A stretch of 64,000 bases of DNA, taken from assembly GCA_963826525.1 (NCBI GenBank), contig CAWGXH010000004.1:160001-224000 (forward strand). Reading direction: 5' to 3'. The translations under genes were made by a program, and so were the position numbers. The stretch's first letter is position 1. Each line of letters starts with the position of its first letter. Positions 1,624-57,749 of this stretch are shown here, in pieces. The DNA comes from an uncultured Methanomicrobiaceae archaeon. GTDB taxonomy: Archaea; Halobacteriota; Methanomicrobia; Methanomicrobiales; Methanoculleaceae. The notes beneath the pieces were generated by a model. It worked only from the letters and a program-made list of their open reading frames with translations, had not been told where the DNA came from and ran no database searches.

Positions 1624-1652
1624 ACTCCATCACCTCTCTTCTGTGCTCCTTG

Positions 1653-4639: not shown

Positions 4640-4654
4640 GGTGCCCCGCTTCCT

Positions 4655-5074: not shown

Positions 5075-5090
5075 CGGCGTATCCTCCCGT

Positions 5091-5418: not shown

Positions 5419-5440
5419 TCTATTCACGCTCCGGATGGTA

Positions 5441-6271
<831 letters not shown>

Positions 6272-10273: not shown

Positions 10274-10286
10274 GCTTCTCTCTCCC

Positions 10287-11744: not shown

Positions 11745-11747
11745 CGG

Positions 11748-13016
11748 TTACACCTCCACCATATGCTCCACCGCATCCATCTTCTCACGCAGGTCTTTGA
11801 CGAAAGAAACGACCCGCTCGAAGGTCTCCTTCTTGCACTGTCCACAGGTCAGCTCGCCCCCGACGCACCGGCGGCGGATCTCGGCGAGTTCGGCATCGTC
11901 TTCGACCATGTGAAAGAGGTTTAAGAGGTAGACGGAGCAGCGGTCCGGCTCGCCGCCGAGCTCTTTCTGCTCTTCGAGGGTCATCCGCCCGCCGGTCAAT
12001 GCCGACATCACCTTCTTTTTAATCGCTTTCTCGGGCTCGTAGAAGCCGAACGAGCTCTCCGGGACGCTGCTTGACATCTTGCCGCCCTGCAGGCCGGGCA
12101 TAAAGATATGGTAGGTCGACGACGGCGAGTAGAACCCGAAACCACCATGCTCGATCTCGATTCCCCGGACGACCTCACTGACCCGGCCGAAGGGCACACC
12201 CCTGATATCCACGTGTGCCTCGTACTTCTTCGAGCCCGGGAATGCACGGTGCACGGCAGCGATCGCCGGTTCAGGGGCGTTCTTCGACCTGACCGAGACG
12301 TACTCGCCCCGGTCCTCGACGGTAAACATCCGGAGTTTGTGCGCCACGTCGCGGGTAAGCCGGATATGCGGGTCCTGATCGATCCCCACCGGCACGATCG
12401 TGGGGGCAGGGCCTGCATCGAGCTGAGGGTAGAGAATATCCGCCACCTGGGTGATCACGCTCATCGCGTGAGAGAGAGACGTTTCCGGCCCGAACCCGTA
12501 GATGGCTGAGAGATCGGAGAAGTTCACCTTGGTGGACGCCTCAAACGCCAGGTCTTTTAGGCGGTTATTCCGGCTCTGGAAGTACGTCGTCCCCTCAAAG
12601 CCGAGTGCATAGAGGCACTTGAGGTACTCTCTGCCGTACTCCCGGCACTTCTCCCACGATATCCCCCGGACGGCATGTGCCTCACGGTCGGCGATAGCGA
12701 TATAGCCGGTCCCGCCCTGCCGGACGTGCCAGACGACCTCTTTCATGACCATCAAGTGTCCGAGATGGGGAAGACCGGACGGCATGAAGCCGGTGAGTAC
12801 GTGGAACGGCTTCTTATCCCGTATCGCATCGACTATCGGCTGATAGTCGCGGTGACCGACGACGATCCCTCTCCGCATGAACGACGGGATCTCAGGAAGC
12901 CTCTCTGCGACCGGCATGATCGGTTCGATGCCGAACTCGGAGAAGAGTTTCCCGATATCGCCGGTCTGGTTATTCGACCATGGATTTATTCCGGATTGCA
13001 TGGAAACGATCCTCAC
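11748..13016 (-). CDS. trpS: Tryptophanyl-tRNA synthetase
   Basis: TGFMPSG.PHLGH (HIGH-like), GIDQDPHIRLTRD, GKMSSS. Confidence 0.95.
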   Translation of the reverse strand: MRIVSMQSGINPWSNNQTGDIGKLFSEFGIEPIMPVAERLPEIPSFMRRGIVVGHRDYQPIVDAIRDKKPFHVLTGFMPSGLPHLGHLMVMKEVVWHVRQGGTGYIAIADREAHAVRGISWEKCREYGREYLKCLYALGFEGTTYFQSRNNRLKDLAFEASTKVNFSDLSAIYGFGPETSLSHAMSVITQVADILYPQLDAGPAPTIVPVGIDQDPHIRLTRDVAHKLRMFTVEDRGEYVSVRSKNAPEPAIAAVHRAFPGSKKYEAHVDIRGVPFGRVSEVVRGIEIEHGGFGFYSPSSTYHIFMPGLQGGKMSSSVPESSFGFYEPEKAIKKKVMSALTGGRMTLEEQKELGGEPDRCSVYLLNLFHMVEDDAELAEIRRRCVGGELTCGQCKKETFERVVSFVKDLREKMDAVEHMVEV

Positions 13017-14020
13017 AGTTTTATTCGTGTAAATTCGATATATCTGACGTCGATACTCTGTACACAGCCAAACAGCATCTTCTTTTTGACGCTGTGGGCG
13101 AGCCTGACCGACCGGGAGATGGTGCTCATCGGGAGCGAGACGCCGGACGGCATCGCATGCACCAGCATCTCCGAGTGCGTCTTCTTCCCGGAGTAGACCC
13201 GGAAGTGATGGCCGAACTTATATCCGGTTCTCGGGATGTAGCCTTTGTCCCGGAGATCCGCATACACACGCTCCTTCTCGCGGATCTCAACGTCCTTCTC
13301 GCCCACAGTCTCTACAAATGTATCGGCGTCGATTGCCGCGCCGTCCGACCGGAGGAGAAGAGCTTCACGCCGAACGAGGTAGATCGTCTCGACGGGTCGG
13401 AGCATCAGTCGTTCCGCATCAAGCCTTTTCCCATACCAGTCCTCCTCAAGGGCGGAGCCAGGAGGGAGATGCGCAAGCGCGTACGTTCCGTAGACGGCTG
13501 CGTTCACCGGTTCGCCGTGAGACGGAGGGGCAATCTCCGGCAGATTCTGAACCTTGACCTCGTAGTAGGTGAGCTCGTCCTCGTCGTCCACGACGGCGAG
13601 GACATACTGTTTGCGCATATTGGTTGCGGCGAGGACATCCTCGCTGAGTCTCTCAAAGTCGATGAGATCTCGCTCGGAGAGCACGCGGACGAGGTACTGT
13701 GATCTCCCGCCGCCCGGTTTGTGCCCCCGGCGAAACACCCGGAAGTCGTGGGGGCCGGGCTGCACCACATACCCCCGCTCACGGATATCCCGGTAGACGA
13801 GGTAACTCCTGATGAAGTTCTGCTGACCGGCAAAGTACCCGAGCAGTGCATCGAAGCCGTACTCCTGCACCTCGATCTTGCCGCGCTCAATAAGGTACAG
13901 AGCCTCCTGCGGTGCAAGCCGCAGTCCTCCCCCTTCCTGTCTGCCGTATCCGCCCTGTTCGTAGAAGGTGCGCCCTTCCCCGCCGAGCCGCACCCATGCC
14001 CCGTCGAATATCGCCTTCAC
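13013..14020 (-). CDS. endA: tRNA-splicing endonuclease (homodimeric, duplicated-domain type)
   Basis: VYRDIRERGY and VYADLRDKGY repeats; GYKFGHHFRVY, H, VRLAHSVKK catalytic motifs. Confidence 0.93.
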   Translation of the reverse strand: MKAIFDGAWVRLGGEGRTFYEQGGYGRQEGGGLRLAPQEALYLIERGKIEVQEYGFDALLGYFAGQQNFIRSYLVYRDIRERGYVVQPGPHDFRVFRRGHKPGGGRSQYLVRVLSERDLIDFERLSEDVLAATNMRKQYVLAVVDDEDELTYYEVKVQNLPEIAPPSHGEPVNAAVYGTYALAHLPPGSALEEDWYGKRLDAERLMLRPVETIYLVRREALLLRSDGAAIDADTFVETVGEKDVEIREKERVYADLRDKGYIPRTGYKFGHHFRVYSGKKTHSEMLVHAMPSGVSLPMSTISRSVRLAHSVKKKMLFGCVQSIDVRYIEFTRIKL

Positions 14021-14133
14021 TCCATCAGTATTGGAAGTGAACGGTCATTAAATCAATTGCCGCACTACCGGAAGGCCACCGGGTTTGGCGAAGAGGAAAG
14101 TGAACAAAGAATTTCTTGGAGACAGAGCCGCAG

Positions 14134-14622
14134 ATGAGTACGGTAGCCATAACAGGAAGCAATTCCCCGCCCGGATTTCGGATTTGCGTGCTTATTGCGC
14201 CTCTTATCGCCACCCAGTTCTTCACCGTGCAAGGTGCCGCTGCAGAGGAAGCACCCCCTGTTGAGTGGAATAAAACCTTCGGCATCGACCTCCGAAACAA
14301 ATTCGAGCAGGTTTAACAGACTCCTGACGGCGGATACCTGATCGGCGGGCAGGTCAACGACGATGCAGTCGCGATCAGGACGGACGACCAGGGGGACGTG
14401 CAGTGGAACAGAACATTCCAGCGCGGTGCCGCCTATGCCGCCGATCTGACCAAAGACGGCGGGTATATCCTCGCCTGCATCACGTTTCCGGAGGCGGGCA
14501 TGACGGATGCGTGGCTTGCGAAACTGCAGGATCTCCGGCAGTCGGATCAGGCTTTCCCCGGGTTCGGTCTCCTCACTGCAGTGGGGGCATTCGGAGTTCT
14601 GCTCTTTCTGCGCAGGCGATAA
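14134..14622 (+). pseudogene. Small PGF-CTERM-type surface protein with an in-frame TAA at 14314-14316
   Basis: ORFs 14116..14316 and 14398..14622 are in the same frame; repeated WNKTF/WNRTF and DGGY motifs; C-terminus FPGFGLLTAVGAFGVLLFLRRR. Confidence 0.6.
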
Positions 14623-14754
14623 GCCTTGCGAGAACATCTGCGAGGGCGCTTCAAAAACCCCATCCCCTCCGGGAACAGGAGGCCGACGCCCCGCACATTG
14701 ACTTTACTCCATTTTCTCCATCATAAAGATGGAATCGAAAAGAAAAAGGTGGGG

Positions 14755-17700
14755 TTACTGCCTGTGCCGCGCCGTGTAGATGTATGCTCCGCCGACCAGA
14801 ACGAAGAGAGCACACAGCCCGATTGCGATCTGCATGAACGGTAATCCTCCGCTGCTGTCTGTCGTCCCGGAGTCGGCCGAGACTACGAACCCCGCAGCAA
14901 GGGGATCGGCGACCGGCGGCTCGGTGAAGAGCGCATAGATGCTGAAGTGATCGATCGATGCCGAGACCGTCCGGTTTGCATCGTCTACCGTCGCCGGAAT
15001 ATCTTCCCACACCCCGGCAATCCCGTTATACCACTTCACCGAAAATATGCTGTTTCCGGCGATATGCTCGTCCCATATCTCATCAGGGAGTGTGAACGTC
15101 ACCGTGACGGCAGGGTCGAAGGATGCACCGTCGGGCCCGAACCGGTAGGCGTATCCGGAAACAAGTACAGCGGTTCCATCGGGCGAGGCGGGAAGATCTG
15201 CCGCATCAATGGGATCGACGCTGATACTTTCAAGGGAAGTCCCGTTATCGCAGAGAGCCCTGACCCCTTCGTCGAGGAAAAGGGCAGTCACGTTGTCGGA
15301 TGATACGAAGACCATCCGCTGAGTCGCTATCCCGGACGCGTTCACCCCGATGGGAGTAACCGTCTCGTTAGTGGCGACCGGCTCCGGCGCTACGGTCGGC
15401 GTAGGAGTCGACGTGGAATGGGACCTGCCACTCCCACCGCCGCCACCACCGCTGCTCGATACAACAGGGGCCGGCGATACCGAGATATTCCAGGCCGCTT
15501 CCGTCGTGTTCTCTCCGGCCGGATTGCTGACGGTCAGGGAAACAGTGAACGTCCCCGCCGGGTATGCATGGGACGGATTCTGTTCCGTCGAGGTCGAACC
15601 GTCACCGAAGTCCCAGAGCCACGAGGTCGGAACGCCGATGGATGTGTCGGTGAACCCCACGGTGAGCGGAGCCGTGCCGCTGGATGCATCCGCCGTGAAG
15701 TTTGCCGAGGGCGGGACGAAGAGCTGGATATACCCGGCTTTTTCTTCGGTCGCACTGCCGACGGCATTCGTCACCGTCAGTGAAACGGTGTATGTCCCTG
15801 CTACAGTATAGGTGTGAACCGGGTTCTGCTCAGTCGAGGTCTGATTATCGCCGAAGTCCCAGGACCACGAGGTCGGGTCGTCGGTCGATGCGTCGATGAA
15901 TGCAACGGTCAGAGGCACTCCCCCTTCCGTCACGTTCGCCTCGAAGAGCACTCCGGGCAGGACGGTTGCAGTGATAGAGTCGGTCTCGACCCGGGTGTCA
16001 TTTGAAAGGGCGTTCGTTACGGTCATTGAGACGGTGTACACGCCTCCTGCAGTATAGACATGGACCGGGTTCTGCTCAGTCGAGGTCTGATTATCGCCGA
16101 AGTCCCAGGACCACGAGGTCGGACTGCCTACTGATGTGTCGGTGAACCCGACGGCGAACGGCACCACACCTCCGGTCACATTGACCTCAAAAGATGCGGA
16201 CACCGGTTCGATCACCGTTATGACCTGCTCCTCGATGTCGCTGCCTGCCGCATTGGTTGCGTTCAGCGTGACCGTATACGTGCCCGTCGCGGTATAGGTG
16301 TGAGAAGCATTCTGCTCGGTCGAGGTCGCACCGTCACCGAACTCCCAGGACCACGAGGTCGGGTCGCCGGTCGATCTGTCGGTGAACTGCACGGTGAGCG
16401 GGGCCATGCCGGAAGAGACATTCGCATCGAAGGCTGCACCGGGAAGCACGCCAACCCTGATCAGGTCGGGCTTCTCTTCAGGTACTGCTCCCGAACTCAT
16501 TTGTTGCATTCAGAGAGACCGTATACATACCTTCTGCAGTATAGGTGTGGACCGGGCTCTGCTCATCTGAGGTCGCGCCGTCACCGAAGTCCCAGGACCA
16601 TGAGGTCGGACTGCCGGTTGATGTGTCGGTGAACCCGACAGTAAGCGGCGTTGTGCCCGAGGTCGCATTCGCCGTGAAGGACGCTGTCACCGGCTCGGCC
16701 ACCGTTATGATGCCGATCCGCTCCTCGATGTCGCTGCCCGCCGCGTTGGTTGCGTTCAGCGTGACCGTATACGTGCCCGTCGCGGTATAGGTATGAGAAG
16801 CATTCTGCTCGGTCGAGGTCGCACCGTCACCGAACTCCCAGGACCACGAGGTCGGGTCGCCGGTCGATCTGTCGGTGAACTGCACAGTGAGCGGAGCCAT
16901 GCCGGAAGAGACATTCGCGTCGAAGGCTGCATCGGGAAGCACGGCAACCCGGATCAGGTCGGGCTTCTCTTCAGTACTGCTCTCGAACTCATCTGCTACG
17001 GTCAGCGAGACCGTATACGTGCCTACTTCCGTATAGATGTGGAGCGGGTTCTGCTCATCCGAGGTCGAACCGTCACCAAAGTCCCAGAGCCACGAGGTCG
17101 GAACGCCGGTCGATTCATCGGTAAACTGCACGTCAAGCGGCATCTCGCCGCCTGTCGGCGATGCGGAGAAAGAGGCCACCGGGGCATCGCCGCCTGTGAC
17201 CGTATAGAGGTAAATGTCAGCGTTGCTGTTGCCGTTCCTGCGATCCTCCCAGACAACCCGGTTCCCGGAGACTGAGGGGAGCCACTGATTGGCGGTCGCG
17301 GTCGTGATGAGCGTCTCGGTCTTGGTGAGGCGGTCGTAGATGCAGATATCCCAGAAGTAGAACCCATTGTGGTTCCTGTAGTCCTCCCATGCGATCAGGT
17401 TGCCGTCGATCACCGGCGAGACCTGGGAAGTGGCGTTGTCCGTGATCTGCTCCTCAACACGGGTAGCAAAGTCATACAGATAGATATCCGCATTCCCATT
17501 CCGTTCATCCTCCCACAGGATGATATCACCGGATATCGCCGGGTAGGTCTGGCGAGCGGGATCGTCGGTGATCCGGATCTGTTTATCCTCCGCGATATCG
17601 TAGGCGTATATCTCGCCGTTGCCGTCCCGGTTATCTTCCCAGGCCACCAAGTTTCCTGATATCGCAGGCCACCAGGTCGTGACGGCGTTGCAGGGTATCA

Positions 17701-18440: not shown

Positions 18441-19286
18441 TCAGGGCCTGGCAAGTTCCCTGACAACGGAGATGTTCCCTGCATCGTCACGCCGCTCATC
18501 CACCGGGGTTTCGCAGATCAGCGGCAGATCGCGCACAGCCGGATGATGGAGGAGGAGACGGAACCCCTCCTCGCCGATACACCCAAGACCGATATGCTCA
18601 TGCCGGTCGAGATGGCTGCCGAGGTCTCCCTTCGTATCGTTCAGGTGAATCACCCGCAGGTGCGCGAGATCAATCCGGTCGTCGAAGATCCCGAATGTCT
18701 CTTCGATACCGTCCTCGGTCCGGAGTTCATAGCCTGCCGCGAAGGCGTGACAGGTATCGAAGCAGATACCGATACGGCTCAGATTCTCGATGCCGTCCAT
18801 GATCCGGCGGATGTCGTCGGCAGTCGTCCCCACACTGTTCTTATCCCCCGCCGTATTCTCGAGGAGCAGCATTACATCGGTATCCGTATCGGCGAGCGCC
18901 CGGTTGACGGCATCGGCCACCCGCTGCATCCCGATCTTGACCCCAACGCCGCCGTGGTGCCCGAGATGGGTGACCAGGTATGGGATACCGAGCGCCCCGC
19001 ACCGCTCGAGCTCGGCGGTCAGCGTCCCGACGGCCTTTTCGAAGTTCTCATCGTTCGACGTCGCCAGGTTCGGAAGATAGGGCATATGATCGATGACGGG
19101 GTGGAGATTTACCGAGGATACCCGGTTCCTGAACGCCGCCACGGCGTCCGCATCCAGTTCCTTCGCTTTCCAGCCCCGCGGGTTTCTCGAAAAGATCTGA
19201 AACGTATCGCAGCCCCGCTCCTCTGCCCTCTCTATCGCCAGCTCGATCGATCCGGCGATCGAGACGTGGCATCCAACCCGCACCAT
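18441..19286 (-). CDS. nfo: Endonuclease IV (AP endonuclease family 2)
   Basis: GCHVSIAG, QIFSRNPRGW, HMPYLPNL, LLENTAG, CFDTCH, HLND, DRHEHIG. Confidence 0.93.
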   Translation of the reverse strand: MVRVGCHVSIAGSIELAIERAEERGCDTFQIFSRNPRGWKAKELDADAVAAFRNRVSSVNLHPVIDHMPYLPNLATSNDENFEKAVGTLTAELERCGALGIPYLVTHLGHHGGVGVKIGMQRVADAVNRALADTDTDVMLLLENTAGDKNSVGTTADDIRRIMDGIENLSRIGICFDTCHAFAAGYELRTEDGIEETFGIFDDRIDLAHLRVIHLNDTKGDLGSHLDRHEHIGLGCIGEEGFRLLLHHPAVRDLPLICETPVDERRDDAGNISVVRELARP

Positions 19287-19327: not shown

Positions 19328-20299
19328 TCAGGGGCCGATCAGAGCCTCGAGCTCGCCGAGAACAGCCTTGCCAAACTCCCGTGTTCCGGTCGCCCCCCCG
19401 AGATCGGGTGTCCGGACGCCCTTCGCAACGGTCAGCCGAACGGCCTCTTCGACCGTTGTTGCATGTTCCGTGTCCCCGAAGTGCCGCAGCATCATTGCGC
19501 CGCTCTTGATCGCCGCTATCGGGTTTGCGACGTTCTTCCCGGCGATATCCGGGGCACTTCCGTGAACCGGTTCGAAGAACGCATGCGTATCGCCGATGTT
19601 GGCGCTCGGGAGCAGCCCGAGCCCCCCGACGAGGTACGCGGCGGCGTCGCTCAGGATATCCCCGAACATGTTGGTCGTGACGATGACATCGTAGCGGGCA
19701 GGGTGCATCAGGATGTCGAGGCAGAGTGCATCGATATAGTGGGCTTTGTACGGCACCCCCGCTTCTTCGGCCTCGCTTGAGCAGATCCCGAGGAAGAAAG
19801 CGTCCGACTTGAGAACGTTCGCTTTGTTGCCGATCGTCAGGTGCCGCCGCTGCTTTGCAAGGGTGCAGGCGCACCGGGCAATCCGCCGGCTCCCCTTCTC
19901 CGTAATCACCCGCAGGGTGCAGGCGCGGTCGGCCTCCCGCCACTCGATCCCCGAGTAGAGACCTTCGGTATTCTCCCGCACGATGACGAGATCGAACCCG
20001 TCACCGCGGATCGGGCGGATGTTGGCATAGAGGTCGAGTTCATGCCGGATCTGCAGAAGGACGCTCCGGTACTCCGGGTCGGGAGGTGTCGTCACGGCAC
20101 CGAAGAGGATCGCGTCGGCCGACCTGAGGCGCTCCATCGTCTCCGCATCGCAGGCACTCCCCGTCCGCTTCCATCGCCCGTAGCCGACCTCGACGTCGTA
20201 TAACGAAAAATCCGGCCTGACCGCCTCGATGACGGCACGGGCAACCGGGATAACCTCCTGCCCGATACCGTCCCCTTCAACAACCGCTATCTGCACCAT
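19328..20299 (-). CDS. aksF: Homoisocitrate/isopropylmalate-family dehydrogenase (AksF-like)
   Basis: EGDGIG.EV, VRENTEGLY, NKANV, NMFGDILSD, FEPVHGSAPDIAG; in an operon with aksADE. Confidence 0.75.
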   Translation of the reverse strand: MVQIAVVEGDGIGQEVIPVARAVIEAVRPDFSLYDVEVGYGRWKRTGSACDAETMERLRSADAILFGAVTTPPDPEYRSVLLQIRHELDLYANIRPIRGDGFDLVIVRENTEGLYSGIEWREADRACTLRVITEKGSRRIARCACTLAKQRRHLTIGNKANVLKSDAFFLGICSSEAEEAGVPYKAHYIDALCLDILMHPARYDVIVTTNMFGDILSDAAAYLVGGLGLLPSANIGDTHAFFEPVHGSAPDIAGKNVANPIAAIKSGAMMLRHFGDTEHATTVEEAVRLTVAKGVRTPDLGGATGTREFGKAVLGELEALIGP

Positions 20300-21098
20300 C
20301 GCATCGCCACCTCCTCGCAACCTCCGTCACCGCACCTGCAATCGCCGCCGGCGGTGCGCCCCAGTGCACCACGGCACCGAACTTTCCGTCGTACGTTCCG
20401 ACTCCTTCCCGCTCACTCCTGCAGCAGCGGGCGATGAACGGTTCCTGCTCCACCGCAGAGAGCGGGCAGGTGTTCTCGAGTTCGAACGCCTCGCCGTAAC
20501 ACTCCCGGACAAGGTCCCTGCCGGTCATGCACCCGGCCACCCGGTCGCCGCCGTGCACGGCATCCGCATCGAGCGTCCGGGAAAAACCCGCTGCACGGCA
20601 GGGATAGAGATCGGCATCGATCTCCGCGATATCCCGGAGGTGCTCCACAAAGACCACCTCAAGGTCGCCGAAGAGACCGCATGCTTCGAGGTCTTTGATG
20701 GTGGCGGCAAGGTGGGGGCGGGGAGGCTGTATATCGTAGACGTGCAGGCGGAGAAATCCGGAGAGGTCGGGATCGAGGACAAACGACGTATGCTCGTCGT
20801 ATCCCGTGAAGACGGTGCAGCGCCGCCCGGACAGGAGCGCCTTCTCGACGAGGCCCCGTCGGTCATGGAGCTGCACCCGATCCGGATAGCAGACGACGTC
20901 GTCTCCTGCGGCAAGAACGCGCATCGCGATCACCTCCCGCATCAGCCCTACCCCGGTCCGGTCGAGCTCGACTTCGAGTACCTCGTGCCCGTTCTCCGTC
21001 TCGCGGATGATGTAGCGGGTCAGGAAGTAGACCAGTTCGCCGCACGGACGATGGCCGGCATCGTATCCGACCTCTTTGCAGTGTGCGGGGAAGATCAC
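20277..21098 (-). CDS. Hypothetical Cys-rich protein
   Basis: GTG start overlaps the aksE stop (GTGA) and its end overlaps the aksF start; Cys motifs HCKE, PCG, YPCRA, GCMTG, ECY, TCP, RCC. Confidence 0.8.
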   Translation of the reverse strand: MIFPAHCKEVGYDAGHRPCGELVYFLTRYIIRETENGHEVLEVELDRTGVGLMREVIAMRVLAAGDDVVCYPDRVQLHDRRGLVEKALLSGRRCTVFTGYDEHTSFVLDPDLSGFLRLHVYDIQPPRPHLAATIKDLEACGLFGDLEVVFVEHLRDIAEIDADLYPCRAAGFSRTLDADAVHGGDRVAGCMTGRDLVRECYGEAFELENTCPLSAVEQEPFIARCCRSEREGVGTYDGKFGAVVHWGAPPAAIAGAVTEVARRWRCDGADSGC

Positions 21099-21565
21099 CG
21101 CTGCGACCTCCAGTACCCGACAAGGCCGCCTGCCGCCAGGATCTCGACCATTCGCGGTGAGAGAGGGCGGGCAGAGTATCGTGCACCGTCCACCTCGACC
21201 CACCCCTCATCGAGGTCGAACCGGACAAGCGCCCCTTCGACACAGGGAAGATCGGCCTCGATAACGGGGAGGCCGATATTGATCGCATTTCTAAAGAAGA
21301 TACGGGCAAACGAAGGGGCGACGATCCCGACAACCCCGGCCTCCCGAAGAGCGATGACCGCCTGTTCCCGGGACGAGCCGCAACCCATGTTCTTCCCTGC
21401 GACGACCACGGCACCGGCGAGACGGCCTGCGAGGGCCGGGTCGAGGTCTTCAAGGACGTGCTCCGCCCAGACAGAGCGGTCTTTGGTGCGGAGGTAGCGA
21501 CCGGCGATGATGACGTCGGTGTCGATATCGCTGCCGAGGCAGACGGCACGGCCTTCACCGTACAT
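21095..21565 (-). CDS. aksE: Homoaconitase/isopropylmalate dehydratase small subunit
   Basis: DIDTDVIIAGRYLRT, GKNMGCGSSREQA, SFARIFFRNAINIGLP; YLRT loop typical of homoaconitase-type small subunits. Confidence 0.8.
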   Translation of the reverse strand: MYGEGRAVCLGSDIDTDVIIAGRYLRTKDRSVWAEHVLEDLDPALAGRLAGAVVVAGKNMGCGSSREQAVIALREAGVVGIVAPSFARIFFRNAINIGLPVIEADLPCVEGALVRFDLDEGWVEVDGARYSARPLSPRMVEILAAGGLVGYWRSQR

Positions 21566-22776
21566 TATGGAGCCTCCGGTTCGGTTATCGTGCCGGTAAG
21601 AGCACTTGCCGCTGCGGTGGCAACCGACGAGAGGTAGATCTCGCCGCCCACGCCCATCCGGTTCTTGAAGTTCCGGTTGGCGGTCGATAGGCAGACCTCG
21701 CCCTCGCCCAGCACCCCGGTGTGGGCGCCGAGGCAGGGCCCGCAGCCGGGAGTTCCCACACTGCAGCCCGCTTCCACGATATCCGCAAGGGCGCCGGACT
21801 GTGCGGCCGCCTGGAGCACGGCCCGTGATGCGGGCACGACGATCGTCCTGACCGCGACCTTCTCCCCGCGCACGATCCGGGCAAATCGTTGCAGGTCTTC
21901 GAATCTGCCATTGGTGCAGGTTCCGACGAAGACCTGATCGAGCGGTATCCCGGCAACCTCCGCTACTTCGCGGACGGTATCCACCCGGTGCGGCACCGCG
22001 ACCAGGGGGGTGATCGCCCCGAGATCGAACTCGAGAGATTGTACGTACTTCGCCTCCTCCGGCGCCTGACGCCCGGCGGCGACGCCGCATCCCGCAAGAT
22101 AGCGGACCGTGGTGGTATCGGCATAGAACATCCCGGTCTTCGCGCCGGTCTCGACGGCCATATTGCAGAGGGTGAGCCTTCCGGCCATGGAGATATCTGC
22201 CGCCGCTTCGCCCACGAACTCGAGCGCCCGGTACGACGCTCCGTCCATACCGAGCCTCCCGACGTAAGCGAGCGCCAGATCTTTCGGTTCTGCCGCTCCC
22301 TGCAGGTGGCCGGTGAGGGAGAGTTCGATCGTCTCCGGCACTCTAAACCAGGTGGAGCCTGACGCCCAGATCGCGGCCATATCCGTCGCACCCACCCCGG
22401 TCGCAAACGCCCCGAAGGCACCGAGGGTGCAGGTGTGCGAGTCGGCACCGACAACGATCTGCCCGGGAAGGACGACTCCTTCGCTTAAGACCTGGTGGCA
22501 GATACCCCCGCCGACGTCGGAGAACGCGAGGCCGGCGGAGCAGGCGTACTCCCGCAGTTCCTTCTGCAGGTTCGCCGTCGTCGAGGTGTTTGCAGGAACG
22601 ATATGGTCGAAGATGAGGTGCACCCGCTCGGGGCAGGGCAGCATCTCCACTCCCATCTCCCGGAGCGTCTCCCGCGTGAGAACCCCGGTCCCGTCGTGGG
22701 CGAAGGCAAGATCGACGGCACGATCCACGTACGCTCCTTCGGCCGCCCCGAGGATACGTTCGGCGAGGGTACTCAT
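21565..22776 (-). CDS. aksD: Homoaconitase/isopropylmalate dehydratase large subunit
   Basis: HDGT, DHIVP, GICHQ, DSHTCT, GTCTNGR, CGPCLG, TANRNF. Confidence 0.8.
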   Translation of the reverse strand: MSTLAERILGAAEGAYVDRAVDLAFAHDGTGVLTRETLREMGVEMLPCPERVHLIFDHIVPANTSTTANLQKELREYACSAGLAFSDVGGGICHQVLSEGVVLPGQIVVGADSHTCTLGAFGAFATGVGATDMAAIWASGSTWFRVPETIELSLTGHLQGAAEPKDLALAYVGRLGMDGASYRALEFVGEAAADISMAGRLTLCNMAVETGAKTGMFYADTTTVRYLAGCGVAAGRQAPEEAKYVQSLEFDLGAITPLVAVPHRVDTVREVAEVAGIPLDQVFVGTCTNGRFEDLQRFARIVRGEKVAVRTIVVPASRAVLQAAAQSGALADIVEAGCSVGTPGCGPCLGAHTGVLGEGEVCLSTANRNFKNRMGVGGEIYLSSVATAAASALTGTITEPEAP

Positions 22777-23903
22777 GCTCCCGTGACCCCCTTCGCCCGT
22801 TTCAGAATATCACAGAGGACATCCGGCGTGATGCTGCATTTGCCTTCACCGCAGATCTTGATCTGATCCAGCACCCACCGGAGCTGACCGTCGTTCAGGG
22901 TGAATCCGTGCGCCTTTGCCACATGCTCGACGGCACGTCTCCCCGTATGCTTGCCGAGGATGAACCGCCGCTCGCCGCCGACGAGCTCGGGCATGATATA
23001 CTCATACGTCAGCGGGTCTTCGAGAATTGCCGCGATATGAATTCCGCTCTCGTGGGCGAAGGCGTGCTCCCCGACAATCGGCTTCGTTTTTGCAGGAAGG
23101 ATCCCGGAAACCTGCGCAACGTACCGGGAGAGATCGGTGAGACCCGCAAGGTCGTAGCGGTCGATACCGCCTTTCATGCGGAGGGCGACCAGCACCTCTT
23201 CGAGGGCTGCGTTCCCGGCACGCTCGCCGATCCCGTTGACGGTCGTGTGGAGCTGGTAGGCTCCCGTAGCCGCCGCCGTTATGGTATTGGCGGAGGCGCA
23301 CCCGAGATCGTTGTGGCAGTGCACGCAGAGAGGGTGGTCCACCGCACCGGTGATCGTCGTCACGGCCTGCTGCATCTCGAGGGGTGTTAAGCACCCCACC
23401 GTATCGGCAAAACTGACGAGATCGGCGCCGTGCTCGGCGCCCCGGGTGTACATCTCGATGAGGAATGCGATATCGGTGCGGGAGGCATCCTCGGCGGCGA
23501 ATCGCACCTGGACGCCGTGATCCGAGGCGTATTCCACCATCGCGAGGGCATCTTCGAGCACCTGCTCCCGGGGCTTGCGGTATTTGTGCCTGATATGCAG
23601 GTCCGACGTTGCGATGAAGATGCTGACCATATCGACGTCGCAGTCGATAGCGGTCTCGACGTCGGCTTTCAGCGCTCTGGCGAGACAGCAGATGCGGGAG
23701 GAGAGGCCGCTTCGCGCAATGGCGGTGACGCAGTCCTTCTCCGAGGGAGAGACAACCGGAAATCCCGCTTCGATCACCTCGACGCCGACGGCGTCGAGGC
23801 GTTCTGCGATCTTCATCTTCTCTTCACAGGTAAACGATACGCCGGGAGTCTGCTCTCCGTCTCGCAGCGTCACGTCACAGATCTCAATATGCCACGGTTT
23901 CAT
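22773..23903 (-). CDS. aksA: Homocitrate synthase-family enzyme (no C-terminal regulatory domain)
   Basis: DVTLRDGEQTPG, HCHNDLG, NGIGERAGNA, HESGIH, LGKHTG; ~376 aa. Confidence 0.8.
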   Translation of the reverse strand: MKPWHIEICDVTLRDGEQTPGVSFTCEEKMKIAERLDAVGVEVIEAGFPVVSPSEKDCVTAIARSGLSSRICCLARALKADVETAIDCDVDMVSIFIATSDLHIRHKYRKPREQVLEDALAMVEYASDHGVQVRFAAEDASRTDIAFLIEMYTRGAEHGADLVSFADTVGCLTPLEMQQAVTTITGAVDHPLCVHCHNDLGCASANTITAAATGAYQLHTTVNGIGERAGNAALEEVLVALRMKGGIDRYDLAGLTDLSRYVAQVSGILPAKTKPIVGEHAFAHESGIHIAAILEDPLTYEYIMPELVGGERRFILGKHTGRRAVEHVAKAHGFTLNDGQLRWVLDQIKICGEGKCSITPDVLCDILKRAKGVTGA

Positions 23904-25157
23904 GTCGTCCATCCTCCGGACAGGTACCCTCAACCACCACGGTACGGGGTTCCTCGGGCACGTACAGCACCTCGCGCAGGGCTTCCTCGTCACCGGCAGT
24001 AACGGTGAACGGCTCCGCCCAGGCGAGGTACTTATGGATATCGTATGCGGGGTGACCACCGGTCATCCCCATACGGTTGTTCTTCAGAACGATACAGAGA
24101 AGCGGTTTACGCTTCTCATAGACGTCAATGAGAGCGTTGATGCCGGAATGGAGCAGGGCATAGTCCCCGGTGAGTGCTACCCTCGTGCTGGCCGCAGCAA
24201 CGGCGACGGACGACCCGAGGCCGTAACTTGCCTCGCCCACCCGGTAGGGGGGATTCATCGCCAGCACCGAGCAGCCCATATCGCAGATCGCCCGAAGACC
24301 CCGCTTCCTCATAAGGGAGAAGACAGCGATGGAACGGGCACTCCCGGCAGAATGTCCGATGAGTAGCCGCGGGTCTCCATCCGTTCCGGAGTCCCGGAGA
24401 GAACGGGAGGTTTGCACCACCGGTGCTCCCGCAGAAACGGCCGGCCGTGCTCGCAGGTATCGGCAAGGAGTGCCGGTTCTGCAGGCGGGGGATAGACCGT
24501 GACGGCCTGTGATTCTCCGAAGCACGTACCGACACCGACCGTTCCGCCCGTCACGCGGTTCAGCGAAGAATCGCGCGACCAGGCAAACATGGCGGCAGTC
24601 CGCCGTTCGGCATCGGCAACACGGCCTGGAAGCGTCAGCCCCGGATCGGCAAGCCGACCGGTGCCGCTCGTTCGCACGACCTCCCCTTCAGGGATATCGG
24701 CATCGAGAAGGAATGGGGTGACCCGGAGCAGTGCGGCGCGGGAGAAGGTCTCCGAAGCTTCGAACGCAGTCTCCACCGCCTGCCGACAGGTTGCGATGCC
24801 CGGTTCCAGCACGGGGATCTCTGCCAGTTCCCCGTAGTAGCGGGAGTCCTGAGCGTTCTGCGACGCCACCACGTCGACATCGTCCCCTGCGACGACCACC
24901 ACGCCCCCGCGAAGTCCCTGGGTGGTTGCGTTGACCAGCGGGTCGGCACAGGCGTTCAGCCCGACGTGTTTGACCACGACTGCCGCCCGGCGGCCGGCGA
25001 GGGAGTCCCCGAGGGCGTACTCGAGTGCCACCTTCTCGTTGACGGCAATCTCGGCGTCGAGAAGCGCCGCAAGCCCGGAGATGGGATAGCCCGGAACGGT
25101 GTAAAACCGGTCGGCGGAACGCCGGAGTGCCGATGCAAGCGCCGCATCACCCTTCAT
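23884..25157 (-). CDS. Thiamine-diphosphate-dependent enzyme, truncated IorA-like (two frameshifts at ~24330-24362)
   Basis: VPGYP, VNEKVALE, KHVGLN.CADP, SQNAQD, FCRECPF, DMGCS, GDYALLHSG...LKNNRMGMTGG; no C-terminal ferredoxin domain. Confidence 0.85.
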
Positions 25158-26126
25158 GGTGTATCCCTCCCCGGCACAAGGTCGCAGCCGGTGCAGGCCG
25201 AGCACATCGAAAGAGCGTTTTTCGGCCTGATGTCCTCACGCTGCAGGGCTCGTTCATGGATCTCCAAGATCCGGAGGAGCCGGGATGCAGACGGGCGAGG
25301 TCTGTCGGCAAGGTCGGCTGCCGGCGAGAGTGGGCGGAGTACCGGGGATGACCCCAATCCGGGCGAGGTCGGTGATGCACCGCTCAAGGTCTTCGTCCGT
25401 CTCGCCAAGGCCGACGATGACGTTCGAGAAGACACGGCCACGGCCGAAGAGTGCAACCGACTGCCGGAGCACCTCCCATACGAATCCCCAGTCAAGGCCG
25501 GGGCACATCTCTGCGAAAATGGCAGGGGTCGCCGCCTCGATATTGAACTTCACTTCGGCAACACCGAGGTCGTGGAGCAGGCGGGGGGTGTTCTTTGTCG
25601 GGTAGATGGAGACGCCGATCGGAAGATCGAACCGCCGTAGCGCCTTCACGACATCGAGCACGTATGCTTCTTCCTCCGGAACCGTCGATGCAACCCCGGA
25701 CGTGATCGAGATGGCGTCGATCCCGTCCTTCACGCTCCCGACGAGTCCGACGATCTCATCGACCGATTTCCGCCTTCCCTCGAGAGACGGAACCGGGCAG
25801 TAGCGGCACCGGAAGATACACCTCCCGGTGACGGTGATGTACGCTTGCCGGGGGCAGTGCAGGGCCGCCGGTTCAAGCCGGCCGAAGACCGGCTCGCCCC
25901 CGATGATCAACTGTGCCTCCCCACCGCCTGTGTGTTCGAGCGTAAGAAGGGCTGCCGGATCGACGGTCAGCCTGACACGGCGGTCACCGACGGCAAAGAA
26001 GACCGAACCCGACCCTCCGGCAGAAGGACCGGCAGCGGAGCGGGATACATAGGTATCCGCCGCTTCTCCGGTCAGCCTGACCGAGCCCTCCGCAAGCAGG
26101 GTTGCCTTCAGTCGTTTCCAGTCCAT
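25154..26126 (-). CDS. Radical SAM protein, biotin-synthase-related (+1 frameshift at ~25345)
   Basis: LHCPRQA, CIFRCRYC (CxxxCxxC), ITSG, NVIVGLGE; C-terminal CSACTGCD. Confidence 0.88.
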
Positions 26127-27001
26127 AACGCGAGCGCCTCGTCGTATCTGGTCGCAAAGGGGATCGCGGCCACCGCCCCGATGATGCCCCGGCCATCCAT
26201 GGCGATCGTCAGGCGGGGATCGTCGAGTGCCGCGAGGTCGTCGTGCGAGACCTCGCCGCTCTTGACCTTCCGCCCGAACACCTCGAGCGGCCCTGGATGA
26301 AAACCGCGGTAGACGGCCATACCGGTCTTGTCGGAGAGCGTGTACTCCTCGAGATACTCCCGGAAACGCCGGACGAGCCCCACCGGATCGTCGGACGCGA
26401 ACTCGCAAGCGATTGCAACGCAGTTCTTCGTCCGATACGGGACAGGGTAGAGTTGAACGATGGTGTGAGAGAGGTAGCGAGACCGCGCATCCTCGACCGC
26501 GCGTGCGATGTTGTGCGCCAGCGTCCAGGTCGCACCCTCCTCGGGGGTATCCGTATCGTCCACCCCTATCAGCACCCGTTCTCTCCTCGGGAGCCAGATG
26601 GTGGAGCCGGCAAGCCTCCCCCCGCCGGCGGGGTCGCTCCGGAATCGGGTGACCCCGGGCGCGGATGCACGGCATATGGAGGCGCCGACGCCTCCGCCCC
26701 CAAGACCACGGTAGGTGATGGCGATCTCGGAATCATCCACCTCGACGCCGGCGATCCCCGCCGGGAATCGCGAGCCTTCGAGGGCAAGGTCGGCTAAACC
26801 GGTCCTGAGAAGATACCGGTTCGTCGACCCGACGGTGCGGATCGATTCGACAAGCGGGCTCTGCGCGTAGTGGTGTTTCACCCACATCGCCCCTCCGACA
26901 CAGTCGAAGAACTCTACCAGCTCGACACGAGTTCCGTCGTCGTCTGCCACCGCGACGATCTGAGGATACCGGATCGTGTAGGGATCAGAGAGTTTCTCCA
27001 T
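26108..27001 (-). CDS. mmp11: Methanogenesis marker protein 11 family
   Basis: VEFFDCVGGAMW, AGI, GLGGGGVGASICR, IGVDDTDTPEEGATW, QLYPVPYRTKNC, GIIGAVAAI. Confidence 0.75.
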   Translation of the reverse strand: MEKLSDPYTIRYPQIVAVADDDGTRVELVEFFDCVGGAMWVKHHYAQSPLVESIRTVGSTNRYLLRTGLADLALEGSRFPAGIAGVEVDDSEIAITYRGLGGGGVGASICRASAPGVTRFRSDPAGGGRLAGSTIWLPRRERVLIGVDDTDTPEEGATWTLAHNIARAVEDARSRYLSHTIVQLYPVPYRTKNCVAIACEFASDDPVGLVRRFREYLEEYTLSDKTGMAVYRGFHPGPLEVFGRKVKSGEVSHDDLAALDDPRLTIAMDGRGIIGAVAAIPFATRYDEALALWTGND

Positions 27002-27942
27002 ACAGCCCTGCCGCTTCACTACCCTTGTTCGCCCAGAGCACCGCGCCAAGTGCCCCAATCCGCCCTTTCCTCCCGGTACGGTCGATGTATTGGATGCCGA
27101 GCCGCTCTGCTTCCGCGTGCGCTTCGTCAAGCGTCAGGATATCCGTCTTCACCCGCCGGAGGAACTCCGATTCTTCAGGGAACGCAATCCCCCGGAAGAC
27201 GGCGATACCCGTATCGTTGCTGACTGCCCGGGACTCGATGAAATCGCGCACGTAGGTAAGAAGTTCGTCGACCCGGCCCGGCATGAACCGCAAAGTTCAG
27301 TGCAGAACCCACGCAGTTCGTCGTCTTCTTCGGCACGGCAGGGTTCAGCTGCACGAGGCGCATATCTAGGTACTCGACTCCCGGGATGGCGCAGCTCTCG
27401 GCGCACTGCAGGGCGAGCACCCAGGTGGCTCCCTCTTCCCGGGTATCGGTGTCGTCGATGCCGATCGTCACCTTCTCATAGCGTGGCGAGACGATCCGAA
27501 CCCGGCACGTCCGGGCACCGCCGGGCCTGAGGTCGTCTTCGGACAGGTACTCCGTGCGGATCACCCCGGGTGCCTGGGGGAGGCAGGCGGCGATGCCGAC
27601 ACCGGCACCGGCGATCCCCGACCAGGAGGTTACCACTTCATCGCCCTGCACCTCGACACCCTCGAGCGCCTGCCCGCCGATCTCGCGATCCGCCGCCCCG
27701 AAGTTCACCGGGGATCTCCCGAGGTTCGCGAGCATCGTCATCGACGTTCCCTCGACGAAGGCCGATCGGAGAGCGCCTCCGGCACGGCGCCGATTCGCGG
27801 CATCCCACTCGATGGTGCCCCGTGCCCGGCACTGCTCGCGTACTTCCGCAACTCCTGCCTTCTCATCAATCATAACGAGAAACTTCCGGGCAAACAGCGG
27901 CCCGTAGCGTGCCCTGACATCCTCCGGCGTGAGCGTAACCAT
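26985..27942 (-). CDS. Second, divergent Mmp11-family protein (+1 frameshift at ~27286)
   Basis: MVTLTPEDV, GIAGAGVGIAAC, IGIDDTDTREEGATW, VQLNPAVPKKTTNC, GRIGALGAV. Confidence 0.72.
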
Positions 27943-32047: not shown

Positions 32048-32954
32048 ATGAGCAGCAACAATATGCATCAGTATGCATTTTTCCTGGGATGTATCGCCCC
32101 GAACCGCTACCCCGGTATCGAGGCGGCAGCCATCAAGACCAGCAAGAAGGTCGGCATCGAGCTGCTCCCCCTCAAGGGCGCGAGCTGCTGCCCGGCACCC
32201 GGCGCGTTCGGTTCTATCGACCTGAACGTCTGGTATGCGATGGCGGCACGTAACATCGTCCTTGCAGAGCAGATGAATATGGACATCGCCCTGATCTGCA
32301 ACGGGTGCTACAAGTCCATCTGGGAAGTCAACCACAAACTGAAACACAACGACGAACTTCGCGACCAGGTCAACGAAGTGCTCAAAGAGATCGACATGGA
32401 GTTCAAGGGAACTGTCGATGTCTGGCACCTCGCCGAGCTCTACTACGACCCCGAGATCGTCGGTGTGAAGAAACTCGCCGACAGCGTCACCCGGCCCCTC
32501 ACCGGTGCGAAGATCGCCGTCCACTACGGCTGTCACCTGATGAAGCCGAGGAAAGAGCGGCACTTCGGCAACACCGAAGACCCCATGTGGATCGAGGAAC
32601 TGGTCGCCGCACTCGGCGCCGAGCCCGTTCAGTACCCGCAACAAGATGCAGTGCTGCGGTGCAGGCGGCGGTGTTCGCGGATTCGACCTCGTTCACGCCC
32701 TCGATATCACGAACGAGAAGCTGATCAACCTGCAGGAAGTCGGTGTGGATGCAGTCACCGAGGTCTGTCCGTTCTGTCAGCTCCAGTTCGACAGAGGTCA
32801 GATCGAGATCGAGGAGAAGTTCGGCAGCACGTACGGCCTCCCCGTGCTGCACTTCAACGAGCTCCTCGGACTGGCACAGGGCATGAACCCGGACGAGCTT
32901 GCTCTCGACCTCCACGCAATCAGTGTTGAGCCGTTCCTGAAGAAGATCCTTTGA
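32048..32954 (+). CDS. hdrB: Heterodisulfide reductase subunit B (+1 frameshift at ~32636)
   Basis: FLGC, SCCPAPG, CNGC, HYGCH, CCGAGGG, VCPFCQLQFD CCG motifs. Confidence 0.95.
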
Positions 32955-32964
32955 GGTGCAAAAT

Positions 32965-34990
32965 ATGGCAGAAGTAAAAAAGAACGAAGAGCAGCCTAAG
33001 ATTGGCGTTTTTGTGTGCCACTGCGGTACCAATATTGCGGGCTCCGTCAACATTCAGGAAGTCAAGGATTACGCCATGACGCTCCCGAACGTTGTCGTCG
33101 CCGACGAATACCAGTACATGTGCTCGACACCAGGCCAGGGAAAGATCGCCGACGCCATCAAGGAGCACGACCTGACCGGCATCGTCGTTGCGGCGTGTTC
33201 CCCGCGTCTCCACGAACCCACCTTCAGAAACGCAACGAAGGCAGGCGGGTTAAACCCCTTCCGGTTCGAGATGGCGAACATCCGTGAGCAGAACTCCTGG
33301 GTGCACATGCACCAGCCTGAGGAAGCAACAGCAAAAGCAAAGGACGCAGTCAGGATTGCCGTCGCAAAGGCATCCAAACTCGAGGACCTCTTCCCGAAGA
33401 GCGTTCCCGTTGAGAAGTCCGCGATGGTGGTCGGCGGTGGTGTCGGCGGTATGCAGGCAGCACTCGACCTTGCCGACGCAGGCATCAAGACCTACCTCGT
33501 CGAGAAGACCCCGACGATCGGCGGGCGTATGTCCCAACTCGACAAGACGTTCCCGACACTCGACTGCTCGCAGTGCATCCTGACCCCGAAGATGGTGGAC
33601 GTATACAGGAACGAGAATATCGAGCTCCTCACCTACACCGAAGTCGAGGAAGTGCAGGGATACATCGGCAACTTCGACGTCACGCTCAGAAAGAAGGCCC
33701 GCGGTGTCATCACCCCCGCCGAGGCCGAGGCACGAGGCATCGTCGGCGGCGGCTGTACCGGCTGCGGCGACTGTGTCACGGTCTGCCCCGTCATCAAGCC
33801 GAACGTCTTCGAGCTCGGCATGGCTCCACGAAAAGCCATCTATGTCTATCACCCACAGGTCGTTCCGCTCATCTACACCGTCGACTTCGACTCCTGTGTC
33901 AAGTGCGGTCTCTGTGTCGAGGCATGCGGCACGAAGAAGGCAATCGACCTCGAGATGGAAGACGAGCTCGTCACCGTCAAGGTGGGAACCGTCGTCCTGG
34001 CACTCGGGTACGAGATCTTCCCCATCGAGAAGAAGTTCGAGTGGGGCTACAAGAACTTCGACAACGTCATCACCTCGCTCGAGTTCGAGCGCCTGATTCT
34101 GTGCTTCCGGCCCGACCGGCGGCAAGCTGATCCGCCCGAGCGACGGCGAAAAGCCGAAGAAGATCGCCTTCGTGCTCTGTGCGGGTTCCCGTGACAACAC
34201 CGGCGTCGGCAAGCCCTACTGTTCACGGTTCTGTTGCATGTACTCGCTGAAGCACGCCCACCAGATCATCGAGAAGATGCCCGGAGCAATCCCGTATATC
34301 TTCTACATGGACATCCGTTCCTTCGGTAAGATGTACGAGGAGTTCTACTACCGTATTCAGGACGAGGGCGCGAAGTTCATCCGCGGCAGGGTTGCAAACA
34401 TCACCGAGGACCCCGAGAGCAAGAACCTCTTCGTCCACGCAGAGGATACGCTCCTCGGCCGGCCGGTCGATCTCGAAGTCGACATGGTCGTTCTCGCCGC
34501 CGCCATTCAGCCCACCACCGAGACCGAGAAGACCCGAAGACTCTTCGGTGTCTCGTGCTCGCAGGACGGCTGGCTGCTTGAAGCACACCCGAAGTTGAAC
34601 CCGTGCGGCACCACCACTGCCGGCGTCTACCTCGCCGGTGCCTGCCAGGGACCAAAGGATATCCCCGACACGGTCGCCCAGGCAGAGGGTGCGGCATCCG
34701 CAGCATCGATCCCGATCCACAAGGGAGAGGTCGAGCTCGAGCCCTACTTCGCCCAGTGTATGGAAGACAAGTGTGCGGGCTGCGGTCTCTGTGTGCCCCA
34801 GTGCCCCTACTCTGCGCTTGCGCTCGTCGAGAAGGACGGCAGGACGGTCATGCAGGTCACCGAGGCAAAGTGTAAGGGCTGCGGTACCTGCGGCGGATTC
34901 TGCCCCGGCGGCGCTATCTGGATGCAGCACTTCGCAACCCCGCAGATCATTGCACAGATTGACGCATTCCTCCTTGGAGGTGAGCAGTAA
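32965..34990 (+). CDS. hdrA: Heterodisulfide reductase subunit A (+1 frameshift at ~34097)
   Basis: VFVCHCGTNI, ACSPRLHE, VGGGVGG, KTFPTLDCSQC, YCSRFCCMY, GACQGPKDI. Confidence 0.96.
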
Positions 34991-54469: not shown

Positions 54470-54578
54470 TCCCCTCCTTGCAAAACCACAGATACCGGTC
54501 GGATCCGACCCGACAGGACGGAGAGTGACGAGGATGCGAGCATGACGGCAATCGCCTTTCTTCACGATCAAACTGGCA

Positions 54579-55600: not shown

Positions 55601-57749
<2,149 letters not shown>

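Follow-up and report, generated by a model that had tools for sequence, protein, structure and literature searches.

Which enzymes finish coenzyme B (CoB, 7-mercaptoheptanoylthreonine phosphate) once its carbon chain has been built? Every methyl-coenzyme M reductase (MCR) requires this cofactor, and elongation by the Aks enzymes as far as 2-oxosuberate is established for those of Methanocaldococcus jannaschii. The question is raised here by a nine-gene operon in a 64,000-nucleotide (nt) stretch of DNA, the window, from an uncultured Methanomicrobiaceae archaeon (GCA_963826525.1, CAWGXH010000004.1, positions 160,001–224,000, forward strand). Four of the genes belong to the AksA, AksD/AksE and AksF families. 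The others encode Mmp11, a paralogue of Mmp11, a radical S-adenosylmethionine (SAM) protein, a thiamine pyrophosphate (TPP) protein and a DUF7714 protein. We consider it probable that the operon serves CoB biosynthesis, with these five proteins responsible for part or all of what follows 2-oxosuberate.

An initial annotation of this DNA held that the late CoB steps are without assigned enzymes. Our literature search agrees: it returned no paper assigning these genes to CoB, subscription journals lying mostly outside its coverage, and a 2025 preprint, in the part available to us, only guesses at the thiol step. The operon, together with its linkage across families, narrows the search for the late CoB enzymes to five named families with homologues in tractable Methanosarcina. 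If the assignment is right, a core cofactor pathway of methanogenesis would be completed, with targets for methane mitigation and help for producing active MCR in heterologous hosts.

The nine-gene operon and its ties to aks genes

All nine genes lie on the minus strand (Table 1), in the order Mmp11 paralogue, Mmp11, radical SAM, TPP, AksA, AksD, AksE, DUF7714 and AksF, and their content and order are as first annotated. A TATA-like box bears out the claim of a single TATA box before them. It falls within the 91-nt gap after ftr, which is the sole intergenic gap of the run. An alignment shows two extra bases in this region in the source genome (G000) compared with G001, a relative with 90% identity in which all nine genes are intact and whose proteins stood in for broken ones in our searches. 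The eight junctions overlap by 17, 19, 4 (ATGA), 20, 4 (ATGA), 1 (TAATG), 4 (GTGA) and 23 nt, in that order, so that DUF7714 is wedged between aksE (GTGA overlap) and aksF (23-nt overlap). These overlapping stop and start codons couple translation through the whole unit. The overlap lengths stand as first written, but three of the eight hold only after assembly errors are read through, because three genes are broken by such errors. Apart from these errors, the nine-gene observation is real.

Table 1. Operon genes and related features. Positions are those of the window unless a contig is named; lengths are in amino acids (aa).
Feature	Position	Strand	Remarks
Ftr	28942-28034	-	upstream neighbour, named by NCBIfam
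TATA-like box TTTTTATATATATT	27998-27985	-	read directly; ~49 nt 5' of the first ATG
Mmp11 paralogue	27942-26985	-	~318 aa without the spurious base
Mmp11	27001-26108	-	297 aa
Radical SAM protein	26126-25154	-	~323 aa without the spurious base
IorA-like TPP protein	25157-23884	-	~423 aa without the spurious bases
AksA-type homocitrate/2-oxoacid synthase	23903-22773	-	376 aa
AksD/HacA-type homoaconitase large subunit	22776-21565	-	403 aa
AksE/HacB-type homoaconitase small subunit	21565-21095	-	156 aa
DUF7714 protein	21098-20277	-	273 aa, GTG start
AksF-type homoisocitrate dehydrogenase	20299-19328	-	323 aa
Second large subunit, LeuC-type	G000:C4:1278622-1279791		

The unit is conserved across the order. 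When its 8,615 bases were compared with the genomes of 30 relatives, a single uninterrupted DNA match covered at least 97% of it in 16, collinear pieces lay on one contig in 13, and one (G004, 81% complete) gave weak matches only. Searches with tblastn recovered the order of the nine genes in each of the five same-order loci examined (L002, L003, L010, L031 and L032; genomes, loci and families bear our own G, L and f numbers).

Beyond the order, the unit breaks up into recurring pairs. G038 (Methanocella-like) and G034 (Methanothrix-like) both carry DUF7714-AksF-AksE-AksD with a divergent AksA and an adjacent TPP gene. DUF7714 adjoins AksE in a Methanosarcina-like genome (G184). Mmp11 stands directly beside the TPP gene in L015, L016, L017 and L027 (four genera of f7), in L020 (f29) and in L023 (f23), and adjoins a radical SAM gene in G038 (45% identity to that of the operon). 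Since DUF7714 and TPP with aks genes, Mmp11 with TPP, and Mmp11 with radical SAM all recur outside the order, the five families are tied to aks genes, directly or via each other, in several independent arrangements.

Are the aks-like genes truly of the Aks type, or are they leucine-type paralogues? Families were assigned by NCBIfam and Pfam profile searches. The NCBIfam Aks equivalogs (NF040615, NF040619 and NF040626) were tried as a discriminator and set aside: the LeuC copy of the same genome scores 490 bits on HacA_Meth and AksD 427 (cut-off 550). A count of large-subunit paralogues was also rejected, as two occur in all five genomes tested, with or without McrA. Because the equivalogs could not part Aks from Leu genes, the class of AksE was judged against a solved homoaconitase small subunit instead. 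That structure, 2pkp ('Homoaconitase small subunit'), is the best Protein Data Bank (PDB) match of AksE: it scores 120 bits, while two isopropylmalate isomerase small subunits score 99 bits (1v7l) and 97.5 bits (3vba). The YLRT loop, which sets homoaconitase specificity in M. jannaschii, is aligned in AksE and 2pkp and marks AksE as homoaconitase type. In G000, the second small subunit reads FLTI there. We take 2pkp to act in the CoB pathway of M. jannaschii. Grouping with leucine or isoleucine enzymes, named in the initial annotation as the finding that would speak against it, is thus not what AksE shows.

The other three proteins give family-level matches. AksA matches HMGL-like (272 bits) and HCS_D2 (83 bits) in Pfam and is without the C-terminal regulatory domain of LeuA; its NCBIfam scores, 443.6 bits for LEU1_arch and 370 bits for nifV, are under both cut-offs, and no AksA-specific NCBIfam model matched it. 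AksD exceeds the hacA_fam cut-off (486 bits vs 385.7). AksF matches PF00180 at 309 bits, and its best equivalogs are AksF2_Meth (314.5 bits, cut-off 540) and AksF_Meth (310 bits, cut-off 500). AksE likewise scores 158 bits on HacB2_Meth and 126 bits on HacB_Meth, under the cut-off of 230. Elsewhere in G000 are a separate leuC-leuD-leuB cluster, including a LeuB-like copy apart from the operon AksF, and two further LeuA-family genes. The operon set is for that reason an extra one. Where their sequences allow a test, the aks-like genes are of Aks type. For CoB, Kaster et al. 2011 name Aks-type genes and no others, as far as the available part of that work goes.

Compared with the M. jannaschii pathway, four of the nine operon genes fall in the same AksA, AksD/AksE and AksF families, and AksE has 2pkp as its best structural match and carries the same YLRT loop. 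Unlike in M. jannaschii, the aks genes here form one translationally coupled unit with five others, and unlike the Aks proteins of other methanogens, the operon proteins score under the NCBIfam equivalog cut-offs that were built on those methanogens.

Beyond aksF, after a gap of 41 nt, lies an open reading frame (ORF) resembling endonuclease IV (18441-19286, minus strand), named from reading its sequence by eye. It keeps this place in the relatives L002, L003 and L010. It may or may not be part of the aks transcript.

Candidate roles for the five other proteins

The clearest clue to function comes from DUF7714, the 'Cys-rich unknown' of the initial annotation. It matches PF24830 at 288 bits over profile positions 2-280 of 280 (gathering score 25). 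It also matches XcbA (NF052538) over positions 37-290 of 293, at 48.1 and 49.9 bits (E 9e-13 to 2.6e-13). Both scores are under the XcbA family cut-off of 150 bits, which makes it a homologue and not a family member. Cys167, 190, 211, 225 and 226 are invariant in nine sequences. A predicted model of DUF7714 (predicted local distance difference test, pLDDT, 83.5) gave no PDB fold match at E<=0.001. Profile comparison relates DUF7714 to XcbA distantly but over the full length. In Xanthobacter autotrophicus, XcbA is a [2Fe-2S] protein that converts sulfoethanethioaldehyde to coenzyme M (CoM) in the last step of bacterial CoM synthesis (PMC9457059, as far as available to us); in that same portion, its authors report no known homologues.

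This homology makes DUF7714 a candidate thioaldehyde reductase for the CoB thiol, and so gives the protein a concrete candidate role and thiol formation a specific, homology-based hypothesis. The two proteins align over nearly their full length, DUF7714 is likewise Cys-rich, and both are encoded in gene clusters for thiol cofactors. They differ in that DUF7714 scores 48-50 bits against the cut-off of 150 and its host is archaeal. The predicted substrate of DUF7714 would be a C7 carboxylate thioaldehyde whereas that of XcbA is a sulfonate, and both the cluster type and the activity of DUF7714 are putative. The initial annotation had assigned thiol installation to Fe-S/radical SAM sulfur chemistry. 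An XcbA-like DUF7714 would suit that step, and it fits better than the radical SAM guess.

The TPP protein resembles indolepyruvate ferredoxin oxidoreductase (IorA) and other 2-oxoacid:ferredoxin oxidoreductases (OFORs). Its intact G001 version matches TIGR03336 IOR_alpha in two stretches, at 161.8 bits against a cut-off of 650.9, and so falls outside that family. PF02775 is passed (34.7 bits vs 21.9), with G330, D331 and N359 invariant. Ten sequences all keep the NEK Glu, the GD...N motif and four Cys (CxxCP, GC, C) unchanged. No Fer4 or other ferredoxin domain was found with Pfam, and no PDB sequence matched at E<=0.01. A protein atlas places the protein only in broad 'IorA family' clusters with coarse taxonomy. 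Like IorA, it has an N-terminal pyrimidine-binding and a C-terminal TPP-binding region that match IOR_alpha. Unlike IorA, it has 423 aa rather than about 600 or more, is without a ferredoxin domain and has no IorB neighbour among the operon genes; we propose a decarboxylase role for it.

The radical SAM protein passes PF04055 (51.6-55.1 bits vs 29.5). It carries the CX3CX2C motif (C103, C107 and C110) and a C-terminal CxxCxxC, all six Cys being invariant in 10 sequences. The nearest NCBIfam models are MSMEG_0568 (TIGR04043; 68.5 bits, cut-off 303.7), LipS2 (NF053743; 62.6 bits, cut-off 270) and variant_rSAM (58.5 bits), none of which is reached. It shares with LipS2, LipA and MSMEG_0568 a radical SAM core and a further three-Cys motif; it differs from them in scoring far under their cut-offs and in having no lipoyl or octanoyl context.

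The initial annotation had also seen two ATP-using TiaS-like proteins, and the likeness to TiaS is upheld. PF22641 (TiaS_TCKD) is found in both Mmp11 proteins (47-62 bits, gathering score 27). Mmp11 itself passes TIGR03280 (334.5 bits vs 255.8). On TIGR03280 its paralogue stays under the cut-off, with 142 bits for the broken ORF of the window and 198 bits for the intact copy of G001, and it has a TiaS-like kinase domain with the IGIDDTD...GATW motif. In Mmp11 this motif is invariant, with D148, T150, D151 and T158 constant in 14 Mmp11 sequences. Mmp11 consists of a unique N-terminal half (~140 residues) and a C-terminal half like the TCKD of TiaS. Its PDB profile matches are TiaS (3amt, 3au7 and 4rvz) and 3u02. 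A predicted model (pLDDT 88.7) shows the TiaS kinase fold: Foldseek aligns it to 3amt_A at E 2.5e-08 with a root-mean-square deviation of 2.4 over 150 columns, and all eight matches at E<=0.001 are TiaS entries over the C-terminal 150 residues. Foldseek found no PDB fold match for the N-terminal domain.

TiaS is tRNA(Ile2) agmatidine synthetase (3amt, 3amu, 4rvz and 5xob). The two operon proteins share with it the C-terminal TCKD fold and IGIDDTD...T. They differ from it in matching the kinase part only: on NF040849 (TiaS) they reach 21-39 bits against a cut-off of 600, over profile positions 2-151 of 422. Since the parts of TiaS beyond the kinase domain are replaced by a unique N-terminal domain, the substrate of Mmp11 is probably not tRNA. 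A third gene of the Mmp11 family lies elsewhere in the source genome (G000:C5, L119:2553-3698, minus strand). Its product of 382 aa, about 80 residues of which form an additional N-terminal region, matches TIGR03280 at 108.6 bits over positions 4-286.

Together, these proteins suggest the following route. AksA, AksD/AksE and AksF would elongate 2-oxoglutarate to 2-oxosuberate, as judged here from homology and the YLRT loop (step 1). The IorA-like TPP protein would then decarboxylate 2-oxosuberate to 7-oxoheptanoate (step 2). It would be an enzyme of the OFOR type, its four invariant Cys perhaps holding one [4Fe-4S] cluster. Sulfide and the aldehyde would form a thioaldehyde, which DUF7714 would reduce to 7-mercaptoheptanoate, as its homologue XcbA does for CoM (step 3). 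The radical SAM protein, with its second three-Cys cluster motif, might speculatively supply or insert sulfur. Finally, Mmp11 could act as a TiaS-fold ATP-dependent kinase-ligase that activates the carboxylate and couples threonine, by analogy with the chemistry of TiaS (step 4). Phosphorylation of the threonine hydroxyl by Mmp11 or its paralogue might end the route, again speculatively. The weakest of these role assignments are those of Mmp11 and the radical SAM protein.

In its boldest form, which we regard as possible though doubtful, the operon would be the complete CoB pathway of class II methanogens. It would comprise a TPP/Fe-S decarboxylase derived from OFORs, an XcbA-type reductase, and an Mmp11 that forms the amide via a phosphorylated carboxylate and also phosphorylates threonine. 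Homologous enzymes would then make the thiols of CoM and CoB in bacteria and archaea, and Mmp11 would be an enzyme with the TiaS fold whose target has shifted from tRNA to a small molecule. The presence of Mmp11 and radical SAM in Archaeoglobus-like genomes without McrA would then imply CoB-like thiols outside methane metabolism.

Coenzyme B weighed against other tasks

How closely do these families follow MCR? The profile drew on 251 genomes from the phylum, all of them 85% complete or more, with McrA counted as present at E<=1e-40. McrA was found in 148 genomes, Mmp11 over its cut-off in 123, and DUF7714 (PF24830) in 108, which take in all genomes of f1-f7, f10, f14, f23, f27 and f29. Every family with DUF7714 holds McrA and Mmp11, and DUF7714 occurs in no family without McrA. 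A scan of genome contigs with the Mmp11 alignment returned, among the 80 loci kept, Methanomicrobiales only. Methanococcales, Methanobacteriales and other phyla were judged via the named control genomes of the family searches. Both M. jannaschii and Methanosarcina acetivorans have an Mmp11 over the cut-off; among the control methanogens, only M. acetivorans has DUF7714 and a TIGR04043-like radical SAM protein. Synteny and profile checks of the kind the initial annotation had proposed give an answer largely in its favour: the operon is collinear across the order and linked to aks in other families, but the match to McrA is imperfect.

Several points weigh against a role in CoB. DUF7714 is absent from the McrA-positive f8/g25 (4 genomes), f12 (3), f15, f16, f20 and f28, and in f15 (30 of 35 genomes with McrA), f12 (3/3) and f28 (2/2) only TiaS-level Mmp11 matches occur. 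Conversely, at least nine genomes keep Mmp11 over the cut-off although they gave no McrA match, namely seven in the Archaeoglobus-like f8, G080 and G213. The M. jannaschii control, a CoB producer, yielded neither DUF7714 nor a TIGR04043-like radical SAM protein. The matches to XcbA, IorA, LipS2 and MSMEG_0568 are all under the family cut-offs, and the operon AksD cannot be told from the LeuC copy of the genome by the NCBIfam Aks models. White's route to CoB is not known to need radical chemistry, which leaves the radical SAM protein without an obvious step. The support for the five proteins is throughout guilt by association and remote homology. A further point is that a preprint, in its available part, proposes COG1900 proteins (MMP16 and L-ASST) for the CoB thiol step (10.1101/2025.02.10.637553).

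The absences in f15 and f12 have a counterpart among the aks genes. Genomes of these families without Mmp11 and DUF7714 have no small subunit with YLRT in five of five examined, and because of this co-absence the f15 and f12 lineages seem to be without a canonical Aks small subunit. As the missing steps of a universal pathway, though, the five families fail, given the M. jannaschii control and the McrA-positive families that have none of them. For class II methanogens the CoB assignment is a well-supported hypothesis. The match between the five operon proteins and the late CoB chemistries that was first proposed is strengthened by gene linkage, by the homology to XcbA and by the TiaS fold; the enzymatic steps themselves are still putative.

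The distribution of Mmp11 bears on a narrower alternative, which we think unlikely. Here Mmp11 and the radical SAM protein would be a sulfur-installing module that turns a carbonyl into a thiol and is common to CoM-like compounds, the pathway still being one for CoB or thiol cofactors. Mmp11 would phosphorylate the carbonyl oxygen, as TiaS does, the second cluster of the radical SAM protein would deliver sulfur, and the amide ligase and kinase would be encoded elsewhere. The pair does form a two-gene unit, both in G038 and in a second Mmp11 subgroup found in McrA-less genomes. Mmp11 of this subgroup usually adjoins a radical SAM gene with the same two Cys motifs, as in six loci (L018, L019, L021, L026, L029 and L030), so that the C-terminal CxxCxxC is kept in both subgroups. 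The nearest named radical SAM relatives (LipS2, LipA, RimO/MiaB and BioB) insert sulfur, yet the similarity to them is far under the cut-offs.

One of the six loci, L030 (G086:C1:795400-815300), which lies in a genome where no McrA was found, bears on this alternative. At 8284-15275 it holds together a thioredoxin reductase, a subgroup-B Mmp11 and a radical SAM protein (MSMEG_0568, 254 bits). The pair also lies beside genes for a cysteate-synthase-like protein (273 bits, under the cut-off), a fused sulfopyruvate decarboxylase and an SsuA-like binding protein. This neighbourhood points to CoM-type rather than CoB-type chemistry and counts against CoB as well. However, the adjacency was met only once, and it includes a gap of some 700 nt. 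In M. acetivorans the main CoM synthase is reported to be MMP16, in the part of the preprint available to us (10.1101/2025.02.10.637553), and DUF7714, with its likeness to XcbA, is already a thiol-forming candidate. As a separate observation, the G086 cluster suggests that thiol or sulfonate chemistry resembling that of CoM or CoB may exist apart from methane metabolism.

The surroundings of the operon invite a second alternative. The genes around it encode Ftr, HdrC, HdrB, HdrA, FwdB, FwdA, McrB, McrA, MtrC and MtrA (NCBIfam and McrA searches), which confirms the ftr/fwd/hdr/mcr/mtr setting that had been described. Because the region is a general methanogenesis island, co-location may reflect co-regulation, another point against CoB. 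The five genes could then be unrelated to the cofactor, serving MCR maturation or modification or some other cofactor and merely riding in co-regulated islands of Methanomicrobiales. TIGR03280 defines Mmp11 only as a 'methanogenesis marker', a hypothetical equivalog, and the Mmp11 profile departs from that of McrA. We nonetheless find this decidedly unlikely. DUF7714 and the TPP gene lie in or against the aks clusters of three more families, in 20-kb loci in which no mcr, hdr or mtr was seen, and translational coupling runs through the whole unit. MCR maturation would, moreover, leave Mmp11 in genomes without McrA unexplained too.

The initial annotation itself offered another oxoacid-derived product as an alternative, naming a methanofuran side chain and a biotin precursor; a pimelate precursor would be a further case. 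Oxidative instead of non-oxidative decarboxylation would be within reach of an OFOR-type TPP protein with four Cys, and the operon proteins stay under the NCBIfam cut-offs for Aks equivalogs. This is highly improbable, given that 108 of 108 DUF7714-positive genomes belong to families that hold McrA and that the small subunit is of the YLRT type solved from what we take to be the M. jannaschii CoB pathway. The sole characterised relative of DUF7714 makes a thiol cofactor, as described in the accessible part of its report (PMC9457059). CoB is the product that we favour.

Assembly errors and other features of the window

As assembled, three of the nine genes are interrupted, which the initial annotation had missed. 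The Mmp11 paralogue has a premature stop at 27175 and the radical SAM gene one at 25254, and what should be a single TPP gene appears as two ORFs, 24309-25205 and 23884-24525. Alignment to G001 places four 1-nt insertions in these genes, at about 27284-27286 (paralogue), 25339-25343 (radical SAM), and 24361-24362 and 24328 (TPP). Public metagenome contigs that are 95-100% identical to the window have exactly one letter fewer at all four sites (24329, 24361, 25342 and 27286), at a depth of 2-4, with one contig per site and partial contig cover of the stretch.

Other genes are broken alike. In the hdrB/hdrA region (32048-34987), hdrA falls into two ORFs (32965-34191 and 34238-34987), and the match of hdrB to its profile of 290 positions covers only 1-189. 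One LeuA-like gene elsewhere in G000 is also split. Since neither G001 nor the metagenome contigs carry the insertions, and since breaks occur in hdrA and hdrB as well, the frameshifts are assembly errors and not pseudogenisation. The gene calls of G000 need checking for spurious frameshifts. That the four insertions, which do stand in the assembly as given, record genuine decay of the operon in this organism is hardly credible in view of the contigs and the other broken genes, of isolated events in the window that are all insertions in G000 relative to G001, of a completeness of 87.6% against 97-99% in most relatives, and of a run of 487 consecutive A that the window also carries.

Further isolated 1-nt insertions lie at about 5082, 5371, 7346, 32637, 34098, 45829, 47665, 50078 and 60487. 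The A run spans 56428-56914, inside a low-GC stretch at 54-58 kb (GC 0.445-0.47, with extreme skews), and the region that holds it (52122-59739) has no alignment to G001. An Rfam search around it (54-60 kb) gave no family match. The region looks like an assembly artefact or filler. At the other end of the window, a run of minus-strand ORFs (253-6262), judged by eye from the ORF list, encodes products whose starts resemble NifH and other components of nitrogenase or F430 type.

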